A DNA stretch of 42,935 bases, from the IMG/VR virus record IMGVR_UViG_2529292907_000021. One strand, written 5' to 3'. The notes under the pieces were generated by a model that worked only from the letters and a program-made list of their open reading frames with translations, made no database searches and was not told the origin of the DNA. Every line of letters starts with the position of its first letter. Positions within the stretch are counted from its first letter, which is position 1. The DNA is from a virus (taxonomy: Duplodnaviria > Heunggongvirae > Uroviricota > Caudoviricetes). Both the position numbers and the translations under genes were made by a program. Positions 1-42,935 of this stretch are shown in pieces.

Positions 1-732
1 ACGGCGGTCAGAGAAAACTGGCAGTGGAAACCCGCGGTGGCGTACTGCCGCTATGCCGATGATTTTGTCCTCATCGTCAAAGGCACCAAAGCACAGGCGG
101 AAGCCATCAGGGAGGAGTGTCGGGGTGTGCTCGAAGGCAGTCTGAAACTCAGGCTGAACATGGATAAGACTAAAATCACCCATGTTAATGACGGCTTTAT
201 CTTTCTGGGGCACAGGATCATTCGCAAACGCAGTCGTTATGGCGAGATGCGAGTGGTCTCAACGATCCCGCAGGAGAAAGCCAGAAACTTCGCCGCATCG
301 CTGACAGCACTGTTATCAGGCAACTACAGTGAAAGCAAAGTCGATATGGCTGAACAACTCAACCGAAAACTGAAAGGCTGGGCCATGTTCTATCAGTTCG
401 TTGATTTTAAGGCCAAAGTCTTCAGTTATATCGACCGTGTCGTGTTCTGGAAGCTGGCTCACTGGCTGGCCCGCAAATACCGTACAGGTATCGCTTCCCT
501 GATGAGGTGGTGGTGTAAATCACCGAAACCGGGTCAGAGCAAAACGTGGGTTTTATTTGGTAAAACCAATCACGGCAAGCTCAGCGGCGAAATACTGTAC
601 CGGTTGGTGGGGCAAGGCAAGAAGCTGTTCCGCTGGCGGCTACCCGAAGGTAATCCCTATCTGAGGACGGAGACCAGAAACACGTATACATCGCGCTTTA
701 CAGAAGTGGCAATGGCGTTCGCCAGCATTTAA
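1..732 (+). CDS. Group II intron-encoded reverse transcriptase/maturase, C-terminal fragment (5' partial, continues upstream of window)
   Basis: Translation TAVRENWQWKPAVAYCRYADDFVLIV... contains the RT domain YADD motif followed by a basic maturase/DNA-binding-like tail; no stop from base 1 to 732. Confidence 0.8.
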   Translation, partial: TAVRENWQWKPAVAYCRYADDFVLIVKGTKAQAEAIREECRGVLEGSLKLRLNMDKTKITHVNDGFIFLGHRIIRKRSRYGEMRVVSTIPQEKARNFAASLTALLSGNYSESKVDMAEQLNRKLKGWAMFYQFVDFKAKVFSYIDRVVFWKLAHWLARKYRTGIASLMRWWCKSPKPGQSKTWVLFGKTNHGKLSGEILYRLVGQGKKLFRWRLPEGNPYLRTETRNTYTSRFTEVAMAFASI

Positions 733-737
733 ATGGA

Positions 738-771
738 GAGCCGGATGCGCTGAAAGGTGCACGTCCGGTTC
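738..771 (+). ncRNA. Group II intron catalytic domain V hairpin
   Basis: 34-nt hairpin with AGC triad near the 5' base of the stem and a GAAA tetraloop, immediately downstream of the IEP stop codon. Confidence 0.7.
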
Positions 772-794
772 GGGGAGGAGAGGCAGGGAAATAG

Positions 795-1295
<501 letters not shown>

Positions 1296-1337
1296 GTTCA
1301 CAGATAAAACACTCTCCAGGAAACCCGGGGCGGTTCA

Positions 1338-1554
1338 CATTGGAAATTGGCGTGGTCACATTCCTGTTTCGCCCTACCCACAACCCAACGATATCAAGTT
1401 GCTCACCCTGCGCAGAGTCCAGATCGAACTTGCGAAGCATGTCAGATGTTACGCCGGAGATGTCAGTGAAAGGTCGGGTTATCAGGTCAATGTGTTGCTG
1501 GAAGAGTGGTTTAGTGACGTGATAGTTCGTTATCAGCTCAGTGTATTTACTCAT
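1338..1554 (-). pseudogene. Phage tail protein (gene following baseplate J, Mu gp48/DUF2313-like position), N-terminal ~72 codons only; truncated by the IS insertion
   Basis: ORF 1102..1554 starts MSKYTELITNYHV... directly after the baseplate J gene with a 4-nt overlap; beyond 1337 the frame runs antisense through the IS, so only the first ~72 residues are phage-derived. Confidence 0.5.
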
Positions 1555-3393: not shown

Positions 3394-4146
3394 TTAACTC
3401 ACACTTCCTGATTTCCCCGTTCCTGGCTGTACGTCGTTATGGGTGTGACTATCATCAATGGTTTTGTTGTTCGATTTCAGCGAACCGAAAAACTCAATGG
3501 CGCCAGTAATTTTCGCTGCGGTTCCGCTAGAAAGACTACCGACCATGCCCCCCATCCACGTTAACAGCCCGCTGATCGTCACCTTCTCCGAGAAGGTAGA
3601 TTCAGGGGAAATCACGTCGAAACCGCCTGGCGCGACCAGTTTGATTTTCTTCGTGTCAGGATTAATTTCGAAGTAGGTACTGCCGTCATCGCTGCGGAAC
3701 TGCGCTGCAGTGGTGCTGATGCCGCTGATTTTGCGCGTCTGAGACTGCGGGCCTACGATGGCGAAGGCATCACTCAGGTCATGCTGGCGCGGGTCTACCG
3801 CCTCCTGTACGCCACCGTTCTGCCACCAGAAATCAATGCAGCGATCGGAGAACACCAGCAGGCACTCATCGCCGGCTTTAACCGGGAAAGTCAGCGTGCA
3901 CCCACCGCCCCGCGGGAATACCACCGGCACATCAGGAAGGATCGGAATGGCCTCGGAGGTAGCCTTACCGTCATCACCTACCTTTTGGCCGTAGATGGCA
4001 GGCTGAACGGTGCAGGTCACTGTTTCGGGGTCGAACGACTGGATGATTCCGGGCATGGCAACGCGCAGGCCGGTGAAAATAGACAGTTTCTGTGCATCAA
4101 ACGTCTGCTGCTCGCTGCCGTCCTGCGCGCGTGGTGATACTGGCAT
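3394..4146 (-). CDS. Baseplate spike / assembly protein V-like
   Basis: 250-aa ORF with AGGAG RBS, between hub-like and W-like genes; N-terminal region resembles gpV/Mu gp45-type spike proteins by eye. Confidence 0.5.
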   Translation of the reverse strand: MPVSPRAQDGSEQQTFDAQKLSIFTGLRVAMPGIIQSFDPETVTCTVQPAIYGQKVGDDGKATSEAIPILPDVPVVFPRGGGCTLTFPVKAGDECLLVFSDRCIDFWWQNGGVQEAVDPRQHDLSDAFAIVGPQSQTRKISGISTTAAQFRSDDGSTYFEINPDTKKIKLVAPGGFDVISPESTFSEKVTISGLLTWMGGMVGSLSSGTAAKITGAIEFFGSLKSNNKTIDDSHTHNDVQPGTGKSGSVS

Positions 4147-16319: not shown

Positions 16320-17035
16320 GCGCCTATAAGGCTCTCTTACCAGCCGCGCCCTAACAGGCGCACACGATCTGACATTTGCATCCAACTTCGTTACTTACGG
16401 CCCGTAAACGGGCTGCCCGGATAGGGAATCGATAACTGCTCTCCCATTTTATCCTCTTCAAGCTGGTGCTTTATGTAATCCTGTATCTTCGCCGTGTTCT
16501 TACCCACCGTATCGACGTAGTACCCTCTGCACCAGAACTCCCTGTTCCTGTATTTGAATTTCAAATCACCAAACTGCTCGTAAAGCATCAGACTGCTTTT
16601 CCCTTTCAGATATCCCATAAAGCCGGATACGCTCATTTTGGGCGGGATCTCCACAAGCATATGGATATGATCTGCACAGCATTCAGCTTCAAGAATCCGT
16701 ACGCTTTTCCACTCGCACAGCTTTCTCAAAATACTGCCTATTGCTCTACGTTTCTCTCTGTAGAACACTTGTCTTCGGTATTTTGGCGCAAAAACTATGT
16801 GATATTTACAGTTCCATCGGGTGTGCGCTAAGCTCTTTTCGTTCCCCATTGGGACCCCCTTTTGATTTCTTGTTTGACACTTGCAGTTGCCAGACCGCAA
16901 GGTGTTTTAACAAATCAAAAGGGGTTTTAATAACTGGCTCAAAGCTGAAAGCTTTCCGGAACCCCCAGCCTAGCTGGGGGTTTTCTGTGCACAATAAAAA
17001 GGCCTGCATAAGCAGGCCTCTTTCTCAGACTAGAA
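16320..17035 (-). mobile_element. IS200 insertion sequence (IS200/IS605 family), boundaries approximate
   Basis: Contains the tnpA gene plus the characteristic left-end terminator hairpin (AGGCCTGC-TTAT-GCAGGCCT followed by TTTTTATT on the element strand) and a second hairpin (ACCCCCAGC-TAG-GCTGGGGGTT) preceding the tnpA RBS; a further hairpin lies near the right end (~16285-16315). Confidence 0.7.
16391..16849 (-). CDS. tnpA: IS200 transposase TnpA (HUH/Y1 transposase)
   Basis: Translation MGNEKSLAHTRWNCKYHIVFAPKYRR...HIHMLVEIPPKMSVS...REFWCRGYYVDTVG is the hallmark IS200 TnpA sequence; start placed at the internal ATG with AAGGGGG RBS. Confidence 0.85.
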   Translation of the reverse strand: MGNEKSLAHTRWNCKYHIVFAPKYRRQVFYREKRRAIGSILRKLCEWKSVRILEAECCADHIHMLVEIPPKMSVSGFMGYLKGKSSLMLYEQFGDLKFKYRNREFWCRGYYVDTVGKNTAKIQDYIKHQLEEDKMGEQLSIPYPGSPFTGRK

Positions 17036-40917: not shown

Positions 40918-41190
40918 ATGGCCAAGCTTCTTAATCTGCAGGAATGGGCGAATTCGACTTATTCAACCCCGCCGTCTCTTTCAACACTTCGCCGCTGGGC
41001 GCGGGAGGGGCGCATTTACCCTGCTCCGGAACTTCACGGAAAAGAATATAAGGTTCAGCCTGACGCCATCTATGTGGATCCGAGCAAAAAGAACCTTCGT
41101 CCCAAATCAAAACGCTTAGCGCTGCCAACTGGCGGCACTCTACTGGAGAGACTGACTCATGGCGAAAAGGCCAGTACGTTACGACGCTAA
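40918..41190 (+). CDS. xis: Excisionase (lambda Xis-like)
   Basis: N-terminus MAKLLNLQEWANSTYSTPPSLSTLRRWAREGRIYPAPELHGKEYKV closely parallels lambda Xis (MYLTLQEWNARQRRPRSLETVRRWVRECRIFPPPVKDGREY); overlaps the int start. Confidence 0.65.
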   Translation: MAKLLNLQEWANSTYSTPPSLSTLRRWAREGRIYPAPELHGKEYKVQPDAIYVDPSKKNLRPKSKRLALPTGGTLLERLTHGEKASTLRR

Positions 41191-42244
41191 CCTGCCCCGT
41201 AACCTGACCTATCGTAAAAGAGACAGGCTTTATAGCTGGCGAAACCCGATTACCGGTCAAGAATTATCTCTTGGCCGGATCGACAGAAAGGACGCCATTT
41301 CTCAGGCCATCGAGGCCAACAACTACATCGACCAAAATTACCTTCCGTCAGCGCTGCTTGACCGCATAAAGGAAACACCAACATTTACGGTGAAAGCGTG
41401 GCTCGAGCGCTACGAAGTAATTCTTGAGCGAAGAGAATTGAAGCCCAACACGATGAAGGTCAGGCGCAATCAGATCGCCACTATCAGTGATGAATTCGGA
41501 CGTATGCCGCTATCGGCGGTCAGCACAAAGGACGTATCTACTTTCCTGGAGAGTTACATACTCTGCGATAAGAAGAGCATGGCCTCTGGCCTGCGATCGG
41601 TATTGTTGGATATTTTCAGGGAGGCGATCGTCGAGGGACATATTGAAAGGAACCCGGCAGAGCCGACAAGAACGCCGACACCAAAAGTGAAGCGTGAGCG
41701 TCTTTTGCTCGAGCAGTTTGAGATAATAAGGGATGCCGCAACTGCTCATTCTGGATGGGCTGCAAATGCATGTGACCTGGCGCTGGTCACCGGGCAGAGA
41801 AGAGAGGACGTATCGCTGTTCAGATTCAGCGATATCAGGGATGGAAGATTGTTTGTCACACAGGAAAAGACAGGTCACAAATTGGCGTTGCCACTTGATT
41901 TGCGACTGGACTCTGCTGATTTGGTATTGCAGGATGTTATCGACCGTTGTCGTAAAAACAACCCGTCAGACTTCATGCTTTATTCTGCGGTAAGGCGTGG
42001 TGGCCGGAAGCCAGGTCCGTTAACTCCGGACGGAATCACCCAAGCATTTTCTGATATCAGGGATTCTACAGAGTTAAAGTTTGGCCCCAACCCTCCCCCG
42101 TTCCATGAGATCAGGAGCTTGGCGAGCAGGCTCTATGAAAGGGAGCGCGGAGAGGATTTCGCACAGAGACTGCTGGGGCATAAAAATTTAACAATGACCA
42201 AAAAATACCTGGACGCACGCGGTGCAGAATATGTTATGGTTTAG
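41159..42244 (+). CDS. int: Tyrosine integrase (lambda Int-like)
   Basis: 361 aa; N-terminal arm-binding region and a C-terminal catalytic region with ...HEIRSLASRLYERERGEDFAQRLLGHKNLTMTKKYLDARG matching lambda Int (...HELRSLSARLYEKQ...AQHLLGHKSDTMASQYRDDRG). Confidence 0.85.
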   Translation: MAKRPVRYDANLPRNLTYRKRDRLYSWRNPITGQELSLGRIDRKDAISQAIEANNYIDQNYLPSALLDRIKETPTFTVKAWLERYEVILERRELKPNTMKVRRNQIATISDEFGRMPLSAVSTKDVSTFLESYILCDKKSMASGLRSVLLDIFREAIVEGHIERNPAEPTRTPTPKVKRERLLLEQFEIIRDAATAHSGWAANACDLALVTGQRREDVSLFRFSDIRDGRLFVTQEKTGHKLALPLDLRLDSADLVLQDVIDRCRKNNPSDFMLYSAVRRGGRKPGPLTPDGITQAFSDIRDSTELKFGPNPPPFHEIRSLASRLYERERGEDFAQRLLGHKNLTMTKKYLDARGAEYVMV

Positions 42245-42320
42245 ACAGGATATGGAAATTTCGAGTAATTTTCGTGGGATTTCGTGAAAGCACCGAAAAA
42301 ACCCAATGAAAACAGATAGA

Positions 42321-42424
42321 TAAAAAGAGACCGAATACGATTCCTGTATTCGGTCCAGGGAAATGGCTCTTGGGAGAGAGCCGTGCGCTAAAAGTTGGCA
42401 TTAATGCAGGCTTAGTTGCCTTGC
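42321..42424 (-). ncRNA. sdsR: SdsR (RyeB)-like Hfq-dependent small RNA, ~104 nt
   Basis: Minus-strand sequence begins GCAAGGCAACTAAGCCTGCATTAATGCC... and ends in hairpin GACCGAATACAGGAATCGTATTCGGTC plus TCTTTTT; a sigma-S-like -10 (CTATTCT) lies ~7 nt upstream of the inferred 5' end; sequence matches my recollection of SdsR but was not database-verified. Confidence 0.5.
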
Positions 42425-42511
42425 CCTTTAAGAATAGATGACGACGCCAGGTTTTCCAGTTTGCGTGCAAAATGGTCAATAAAAAGCGCGGTAGTCATCA
42501 GCTTAAATGTT

Positions 42512-42553
42512 AAAAACCGCCCGTTCTGGTGAAAGAACTGAGGCGGTTTTTTA
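42512..42553. terminator. Bidirectional intrinsic terminator (possible 3' end of plus-strand RyeA/SraC-like RNA and of the minus-strand yebY-like gene)
   Basis: Hairpin AAACCGCC-...-GGCGGTTT flanked by T-runs on both strands. Confidence 0.5.
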
Positions 42554-42581
42554 TTGGAAATCAAAAGGCTATTTTAGGTAA

Positions 42582-42935
42582 TTAACAGAGTTTTTCAGCT
42601 CGTTCTATAAACGGTGCCAGACTCATTTTTTCGCCGGGATTGTTAGGATCATCAATCTGAATCACCGAAATCGGCTGGGCTTTAGTCTTCCCACTGGCAA
42701 CTTCCTTTTGTGCGATATCGTTTAAAGGATACTGCACGAGGGTACTTGGGTTGATGACATACAAAGCATTACCCGGTCGGCAAGTCAGCATCACCTCTTC
42801 GCGATTAAACGCCCATTTGTCTTTACCCACTTCAAAACGGCTGACGGTAATCACCTGCGGTGCCGCCAGCGCCGCTGCAGAACTGGTGAGTAACAGAAAC
42901 GCCAGAATACTTTTTTCATCATTTTCGTAATCCAT
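42582..42935 (-). CDS. yebY: Host periplasmic protein with signal peptide (YebY/DUF2511-like); start at or beyond the window edge
   Basis: Translation contains signal-peptide-like [18 protein letters not shown] followed by a ~95-aa domain with two Cys; ORF begins at the last base of the window, so the true start may differ. Name from memory and from adjacency to the sdsR-like locus. Confidence 0.4.

Follow-up and report, generated by a model that had tools for sequence, protein, structure and literature searches.

Probable integration of a prophage into the terminator of the small RNA gene sdsR, with the end of int as a candidate ryeA promoter

Genes and features at the junction

The DNA analysed here, referred to as the window, is a stretch of 42,935 nucleotides towards the end of which the 104-nt gene of the small RNA SdsR (RyeB) is found on the minus strand at positions 42321-42424, downstream of yebY, as identified by Rfam, by folding and by a terminator scan. 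The Rfam family RF00111 (SdsR/RyeB) matches the minus strand at 42322-42421 with 116.4 bits (gathering score 38; E = 4e-22), the match spanning the whole model (positions 1-100 of 100), and the RNA read from 42424 to 42321 folds into the expected hairpins and terminator at -34.8 kcal/mol (z = -4.7). The terminator is Rho-independent and consists of an 11-bp stem and a U-tract, with stem arms at 42346-55 and 42329-38, a loop at 42339-45 and the U-tract at 42321-28, all on the minus strand. The sdsR promoter is located at 42425-42470 on the same strand, where it reads TCTATTCTTAAAGG followed by the start G, and its -13C/-10 stretch, TCTATTCTTAA, holds the -10 element TATTCT (42436-31) preceded by a C at position -13 (42437), a base whose importance has been shown experimentally in Salmonella by Fröhlich et al. 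(PMC3333887). Sigma-S activity is predicted for this promoter, and the segment 42348-42478, in which it is included, is identical to K-12. The original prediction, made from the letters of the sequence alone, had placed an SdsR of about 104 nt directly after int on the minus strand with a sigma-S-type -10 element ahead of it, and both are indeed found there, the Rfam search of 42321-42424 returning RyeA in addition.

In E. coli the RNA RyeA (SraC) is 272 nt long and the whole sdsR unit lies inside ryeA (PMC6610125). The body of RyeA retained in the window corresponds to nt 37-272 of the K-12 RNA and occupies 42318-42553 on the plus strand, as judged from the RNA ends mapped by Choi 2019 and from a match to RF00101 (SraC/RyeA) at 42318-42462, which covers the whole model with 178.5 bits against a gathering score of 37 and bears out the proposal of a RyeA antisense to SdsR. 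A second, bidirectional Rho-independent terminator is found at 42512-42553, where the predicted hairpin has a folding energy of -20.0 kcal/mol on the plus strand and -19.8 kcal/mol on the minus strand with U-runs on both. This segment holds the RyeA 5'-RACE primer site of Choi 2019 and coincides with the RyeA 3' ends mapped there at +261 to +270 (PMC6610125), and since it folds on both strands and fits these 3' ends, it ends both RyeA and yebY, where one or the other had been suggested. A simple terminator scan skipped this terminator, the stem of which is bulged. The first chromosomal gene is yebY (DUF2511; Pfam PF10709, E = 5e-45) at 42582-42935 on the minus strand, the annotation of which is present in all matching E. 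coli genomes.

On the phage side of the junction are an xis excisionase gene (40918-41190, plus strand; Pfam PF07825 Exc, E = 7.5e-22), which overlaps the start of int, and int itself (41159-42244, plus strand, stop codon 42242-44), an ORF that reads towards the junction and encodes a lambda/HK022-type tyrosine integrase of 361 aa. This integrase has the arm-binding N-terminal domain PF09003, the central domain PF22022 and the catalytic domain PF00589 (Phage_integrase), with Xis adjacent, and its amino acid sequence is 78% identical to the integrase of Flyfo siphovirus Tbat2_3, 40% identical to that of HK022 and 49% identical to an O111-type integrase with which it has its integration site in common. 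Genes for tail sheath, tape measure, baseplate, portal, RecE and RecT are found further upstream, and the window is a prophage with lambda-like early genes and a contractile tail. It is truncated inside a baseplate gene by an IS3-family element with a group II intron (1-1344, plus strand), which is 99.9% identical to ltrA/IS3 copies elsewhere, has an Rfam group II intron domain at 736-822 and gives PHROG matches to reverse transcriptase and transposase. With the prophage interrupted in this way its other end lies outside the window, as had been anticipated. The closest prophage among 5,426 complete E. coli genomes, in strain GZ2408P, is complete and 92% identical; a near-identity search of deposited phages gave no close relative of the int region, and a cargo ORF at the far end of the related prophage has no Pfam match.

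The attachment core and the site of strand exchange

All 5,426 complete E. coli genomes match at the junction only from 42318-42321 rightwards, int being present as well in five of them, and in the alignment to K-12 homology begins at AGATAAAAAGAG, that is at the same boundary, so that comparison with the unoccupied locus confirms the junction. The att core, ATAAAAAGAGACCGAATACGATTCCTGT, extends over 42320-42347, with 42318-19 also matching attB, and spans the last 25-27 nt or so of sdsR, depending on which mapped SdsR 3' end is used. An att core within about 42245-42330 had been predicted, and of this the position at the 3' end of the small RNA stands, but the remainder of that interval is mostly P' arm and the core itself reaches further to the right. 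Since attP and attB share about 28 bp, the core is duplicated by integration, and among the IMG/VR matches listed a direct repeat of 26-32 bp, almost always ending in ...CCTGT, is indeed found in 12 contigs with both junctions. Both ends of the GZ2408P prophage likewise carry ATAAAAAGAGACCGAA(C/T)ACGATTCCTGT, beside pphA and again beside int. The duplication is thus seen in relatives, and the window itself holds no second copy of the core within its 42,935 nt because its far end lies beyond the IS3/intron element.

The P' arm of the phage (42245-42319, plus strand) is not present in any unoccupied E. coli genome and contains three direct repeats TTTCG(A/T)G at 42259-65, 42270-76 and 42280-86, which are spaced 10-11 bp apart, lie 56-83 nt from the centre of the core on the int side and are putative arm sites of the integrase. 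The three repeats are kept in 38 phages and occur also in a second integrase lineage, and the order of int, three arm repeats and core is that of attP in the circular genome of Flyfo siphovirus Tbat2_3 and in the attP copies of IMG/VR.

A scan of IMG/VR for the core gave at least 120 contigs, and the matches listed comprise 67 int-side junctions, 16 E. coli pphA-side junctions and 39 other copies in which the DNA on the right of the core is not sdsR, the latter being partly genuine attP sites, flanked by phage arms left and right, and partly pphA-side junctions of other species. Position 42336 is T in the attP allele and C in the attB of E. coli, and among these listed matches T is found in 67/67 int-side junctions and C in 16/16 E. 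coli pphA-side junctions; the same split is seen within single prophages, both in GZ2408P and in the two-junction contigs. Since E. coli lysogens have C at the pphA side and T at the int side, base 42336 is located to the left of the crossover, and from these alleles we infer that strand exchange took place within ACGATTCCTGT (42337-47). This stretch is made up of the 7-nt terminator loop GATTCCT (42339-45) and two base pairs on each side of it, and the loop is surrounded by perfect 10-bp inverted repeats at 42329-38 and 42346-55. The stem arms of the terminator would then be two core-type integrase sites with GATTCCT as the overlap, and a crossover in a loop flanked by a stem is also the geometry of tRNA anticodon loops. 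According to such a model, the pphA-side junction would read ...TTTTAACAGATAAAAAGAGACCGAACACGATTCCTGT and continue into phage DNA, the polymorphic base being C.

The 3' stem arm and the U-tract of SdsR are phage-supplied DNA, and the rebuilt RNA differs from that of K-12 by one base, nt 89 being A for G. An effect of the T/C difference on the stability of the SdsR terminator was considered and rejected, since an A-U pair in place of a G-U pair has equal predicted energy. As far as can be judged from its sequence SdsR is rebuilt intact, promoter and body being kept and the terminator restored. We can conclude that 42245-42581 is very probably the int-proximal junction (attL in the lambda style) of a prophage integrated in the Rho-independent terminator of sdsR.

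The displaced ryeA promoter and the end of int

The native ryeA promoter has the sigma-70 -10 element TATGGT, which was mutated to CTCGAG by Choi et al., and the pphA mRNA arises by read-through from the sdsR promoter (PMC6610125). In K-12 the ryeA -10 is found 43 nt and the RyeA 5' end 36 nt from the core, and since both are on its pphA side, integration cuts RyeA off from its own promoter and from its first 36 nt. Indeed the K-12 RyeA 5' end sequences AAAGTCAGCGAAGG and GACTATAAAG are absent from the window, and phage arm DNA replaces the 5' region, the sole recurring part being a -10 motif at 42232-40. It follows from the published work that the native ryeA promoter and the first 36 nt now lie beyond the other end of the prophage, at least 41 kb off, that the sdsR-pphA read-through transcript is severed, and that read-through from sdsR now enters int in the antisense direction. 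The earlier suggestion that integration could alter expression of the small RNAs thereby acquires a specific, sequence-derived form in the probable displacement of the RyeA promoter. The terminator scan furthermore found the DNA from the int stop codon to the sdsR hairpin free of terminators, and read-through from int into the RyeA body is therefore possible.

Comparison of sequences leads us to propose the last 20 int codons and the stop codon (42182-42244, plus strand) as a phage-borne ryeA promoter. The candidate parts are AAAAATTTAACAA (42182-94), an A-tract (42200-05), CTGGAC (42209-14) and the extended -10 TGTTATGGT (42232-40), which overlaps the last codons of int (YVMV*) and is identical to the extended -10 of K-12 ryeA, and CTGGAC is placed 20 nt upstream of the -10 in both K-12 and the window. 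The predicted start of RyeA would be near 42247, and since the -10 of the window sits 36 nt further out than that of K-12, a RyeA of about 307 nt (roughly 42247-42553) is predicted. The end of int would in other words double as a replacement promoter made up of UP-like A/T tracts, CTGGAC, a distance of 20 nt and TGTTATGGT, the RyeA of a lysogen would be about 36 nt longer, and by way of this longer RNA the antisense control of SdsR would continue.

A constraint on this segment is visible in its codons. In a sample of 30-38 distinct intact phage ints the third positions are invariant in 15/20 of the last codons versus 1/19 of those just upstream (Fisher p = 1e-5), and in a longer alignment 4/59 upstream third positions are invariant, compared with the same 15/20 at the end. 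Third positions of int vary freely until the codon K at 42182, the upstream coding sequence varying at nearly every one of them. The frozen synonymous sites might have been explained by a recently shared att-proximal block, but this was rejected, since the P' arm is variable at 25/75 positions. The frozen segment could also have another overlapping phage function. A consensus sigma-70 scan of the int end called no promoter, which is due to the lack of a good -35 at 16-18 nt, and the K-12 promoter is equally weak there. In Salmonella lysogeny by PhiW104 is reported to lower ryeA and raise ryeB (PMC7380047), and with ryeA lowered a promoter carried by the phage may make up for the loss only in part.

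The origin of the K-12 promoter may be approached through a set of at least 120 species-representative Enterobacterales genomes carrying the SdsR body pattern, the listed set being without the loci of Escherichia albertii, E. fergusonii and Salmonella Typhimurium. Among the 120 listed species 18 full-length ints and 21 C-terminal int fragments abut sdsR according to a protein search, which puts an int or int relic beside sdsR in 39 of them, and a DNA profile of the int end raises this to 64 species arms among the matches listed. What we term type-1 arms, the pattern of which itself required CTGGAC and TATGGT, occur in 36 of the 120 listed species; exactly 20 nt separate CTGGAC from TATGGT in 34/36, and 31/36 have no int ORF, an intact one being found in only five of the matches listed. 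The int-end profile, although trained solely on intact phage ints, matches K-12 once, in a colinear fashion and ending at the -10, with 12.7-14.4 bits and E = 1e-4 to 4e-4, these nhmmer E-values referring to small, location-specific search spaces. In 12 non-redundant old relics, which are phylogenetically related and so not independent samples, AAAAATTTAACAA, the A-tract, CTGGAC and TGnTATGGTTTA are conserved at 0.9 or above, the spacer at 0.4-0.7 and the former catalytic-Tyr codon at 0.1-0.3, and similarity ends at the old stop codon, a pattern that fits a promoter and not a gene. When K-12 is compared pairwise with the arm of the window the similarity is modest, 13/2,000 shuffles reaching the score, and its similarity to the O111 arm is not significant (175/2,000 shuffles); the arm of K-12 is 36 nt shorter owing to loss of the arm-type repeats. 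In the second integrase lineage the arm has at its outer end a motif of its own, TGATATAAC, which resembles an extended -10 and is kept in Klebsiella, Raoultella and other relics. Shigella has a phage-type arm in which the distance of this motif from the terminator exceeds that of the K-12 -10 by 40 nt, and Fröhlich et al. described SraC as being about 35 nt longer in Shigella and Salmonella with a -10 about 35 bp further upstream (PMC3333887).

By its graded nature this series of relic sequences, which carries far more weight than the pairwise score, gives good support to the idea that the ryeA promoter of K-12 is the fossil remainder of an int end. To the joint reading, in which the end of int is a replacement ryeA promoter giving rise to a RyeA of about 307 nt and the K-12 promoter is a decayed int end, we would from the sequences assign a probability of roughly 60%, and we lean slightly towards the broader notion that the ryeA promoter and 5' end in E. 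coli and many Enterobacteriaceae are an exapted int fossil, re-supplied by living phages at each integration. No description of an int-relic origin of the ryeA promoter was found in PMC7380047 and PMC3333887 or in the other literature searched, and the connection of the int end with the ryeA promoter may be new, even if part of it may be contained in Balbontín 2008, which is known to us by way of the papers citing it.

It is conceivable, if rather doubtful, that the junction is as described and the end of int is nevertheless no promoter, its frozen sites serving the phage as part of an extended attP arm, as a 3' element of the int mRNA or as a protein-binding site, in which case RyeA would be silent in the lysogen or transcribed by int read-through only and SdsR would rise. 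The outcome of the consensus scan, the terminator-free DNA after int and the opposite changes of ryeA and ryeB reported upon PhiW104 lysogeny (PMC7380047) are all in agreement with this notion, which is however difficult to reconcile with the conservation of the blocks in genomes without int and arm repeats, K-12 included, where the corresponding DNA is the experimentally defined ryeA promoter. Furthermore, the segment is located 98-160 nt from the core centre and hence outside the three arm repeats. The P' arm of lambda ends about 80 nt from its core, which likewise speaks against a role in the attP arm.

A resemblance of the K-12 ryeA promoter to the 3' end of int by chance or convergence, with no descent from a phage, is very improbable, even though the profile score of K-12 is low and the shuffles correspond to p values of about 0.007 for the window and about 0.09 for the O111 arm. 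The similarity extends over some 65 nt, encoding HKNLTMTKKYLD...YVMV in the phage, which exceeds the needs of a promoter, and it can be followed in a series from intact int over the fresh relics of Kosakonia and E. asburiae and then the intermediate ones of Leclercia, Citrobacter, Enterobacter and Atlantibacter to E. coli, the members of which share place and orientation beside the core and are gapless but for one base; the neighbours are moreover phage-like, pphA being lambda-PP-like (PMC6610125) and yebW being annotated as YdfD/YebW family. Still harder to believe is that int came to abut sdsR by IS-mediated rearrangement or by decay of a remnant and not by site-specific integration. This idea derives from the IS3 element and group II intron that interrupt the prophage, from the position of the far junction outside the window and from the insertions of ISApl1, ISVsa5 and IS1 found around the locus, but the junction is base for base that of complete relatives with a matching far junction, it equals the 67 int-side junctions among the IMG/VR matches listed, and int, xis, arm repeats and core are intact and in the arrangement of attP.

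Use of the site and comparison with known systems

Of the 5,426 E. coli genomes, 5,191 contain a contiguous match to a K-12 attB probe and about 235 a split one, and about 4% of E. coli genomes have the ryeB site occupied. The SdsR terminator is, loop included, almost invariant from Escherichia to Yersinia among the species listed. The second integrase lineage, which occurs in strains of O111, O103 and O55:H7 and as a remnant in Shigella, uses the same core in the same orientation. In E. coli the site serves two integrase lineages or more, and across Enterobacterales there are many others. According to Balbontín 2008, as reported in PMC7380047 and PMC3333887, the last 23 bp or so of ryeB are the att site of PhiW104 and of older acquisitions in Salmonella, and island catalogues have 'RyeB' among the names of their targets (PMC10111431). 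Insertion inside this end segment of ryeB, repeats of 26-32 bp and differing elements at one place are all found in the present case, and the prophage of the window is a further example of this documented hotspot, in keeping with the hotspot named in the original prediction.

As far as the Salmonella hotspot of Balbontín 2008 is described in the citing papers, PhiW104 resembles the prophage of the window in targeting the last 23 bp or so of the ryeB terminator, internal to ryeA, in duplicating the terminator segment, in the occurrence of differing elements at one spot and in the change of the 5' part of ryeA. In contrast to that system, the host of the window is E. coli, the core is 28 bp long with a single T/C mismatch to attB that localises the crossover, and the integrase lineage is rare in E. 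coli (5/5,426 genomes). The lambdoids of O111, O103 and O55:H7 EHEC/EPEC strains and the Shigella remnant, with an integrase of WP_001189091 type, have the same core and orientation and likewise xis-int beside sdsR; their P' arm contains three TTTCGNG arm repeats and, at its outer end, a motif resembling an extended -10. Their TGATATAAC is however non-coding and follows the int stop codon, whereas the motif of the window lies inside int, and they are of siphovirus type with the T3SS effector cargo ipaH3 and nleG7. The O111-type int is furthermore some 45 times commoner at the site in E. coli, being found in 228 of the 5,426 genomes against five for that of the window.

With lambda and HK022 the prophage shares the arm-binding N-domain, the adjacent Xis, three arm-type repeats by the int stop codon and an inferred core that forms an inverted repeat around 7 bp, but integrase identity is about 40%, and lambda and HK022 target a gal-bio intergenic site, not a small RNA terminator. 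The core identity block is 28 bp in the window and 15 bp in lambda, the longer core being explained by the fact that it restores the end of a gene. Replacement 3' ends are also carried by phages and islands integrating in tRNA or tmRNA genes (PMC10111431), and these are similar in that attP replaces the displaced 3' part of an RNA gene and that their crossover is in a 7-nt loop with a symmetric stem, as it probably is here. They differ from the present case, where the target is an Hfq-binding small RNA with an antisense partner, so that two overlapping genes are hit, and where the second of these genes apparently also receives a new promoter from the phage arm.

A prophage at a documented hotspot is ordinary in itself. 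The analysis however adds a base-level model of the site in E. coli, with a 28-bp core, a crossover in the terminator loop and stem arms that are likely integrase sites, and it describes a probable outcome of lysogeny for a toxin/antitoxin-like pair of small RNAs, in which SdsR is restored, RyeA is deprived of its native promoter and the transcript running from sdsR into pphA is interrupted. If the end of int indeed acts as a ryeA promoter, attP would repair both small RNA genes, the SdsR terminator by means of the core and the RyeA promoter by means of the int end, and the phage would thus compensate for regulatory damage caused by its own integration. The promoter of a chromosomal regulatory RNA would likewise have been born from the 3' end of int, a coding sequence turned promoter, and this would explain why the sraC promoter and the length of RyeA differ between species despite an invariant sdsR.

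The SdsR terminator and the arm next to it

The SdsR terminator (42329-42355), with its 7-nt loop GATTCCT, is nearly unchanged from Escherichia to Yersinia and Serratia among the species-representative Enterobacterales loci compared (L132-L251), which is unusual in a terminator loop, and the conservation of the loop may stem from a role as att overlap or from pairing in the duplex with RyeA. At position 42336 the E. coli attB has a C in place of the T of attP and of most other genera, and one base of SdsR is therefore rewritten per integration, namely nucleotide 89, which changes from G to A with no change in predicted stability. The start of the adjoining P' arm (42245-42255) is strongly conserved as GACAGGATATGG, and the arms that go with the second, O111-type integrase lineage are likewise strongly conserved at their start, as AAAAAGACCGGAATACAG (locus L008, ~3415-3440); in this second lineage the start of the arm resembles the att core, AAAAAGAGACCGAATAC.

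Other elements at the sdsR site

The closest deposited phage is Flyfo siphovirus Tbat2_3 (L131), the integrase of which is 78% identical. Its attP loop (~2660-2690) reads CAATCCT and not GATTCCT, and this difference in sequence suggests that the sdsR terminator of its host differs as well. Upstream of xis, Tbat2_3 has a gene (892-1146) with the annotation DNA polymerase III theta subunit, and in the E. coli chromosome holE is found 2 kb from sdsR.

In K-12 (L001) the genes between rsmF and an int relic, yebV-yebW-pphA (1181-2370), are phage-like, since pphA resembles the lambda phosphatase (PMC6610125) and yebW has the family annotation YdfD/YebW; the block as a whole would fit what is left of an ancient prophage at the sdsR att site. 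IS elements also gather at the sdsR/ryeA spot in other E. coli genomes (L007, 5310-6284; L010, 2185-3393; hit H91), with ISApl1 at the left edge of the core or a few bases off, ISVsa5 within sdsR/ryeA and IS1 between pphA and yebY.

Inside the prophage

The baseplate-wedge gene is interrupted by an IS3-family element (1-1344) that holds the 3' portion of a group II intron, with the ltrA reverse transcriptase and, at 736-822, domain V/VI, and that shares 99.9% identity with copies carried by ETEC plasmids; because of this interruption the phage is probably defective, its far end lying beyond the window. Amid the head genes, the minus strand carries a full-length match to the Hfq-binding sRNA STnc490 (16859-16982; 146 bits).

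The displaced ryeA promoter

At their far junction, next to pphA, related prophages begin with ipaH3 (L005, 5910-7625), nleG7 (L006, 6123-6773) or an ORF of 190 aa without a Pfam match (L003, 6260-6832), and in all three the displaced native ryeA promoter has the same orientation as this first gene. In strain GZ2408P, which has a related complete prophage, no terminator-like site is found between promoter and first cargo gene. Judged from this arrangement, the orphaned ryeA promoter might drive expression of phage cargo.
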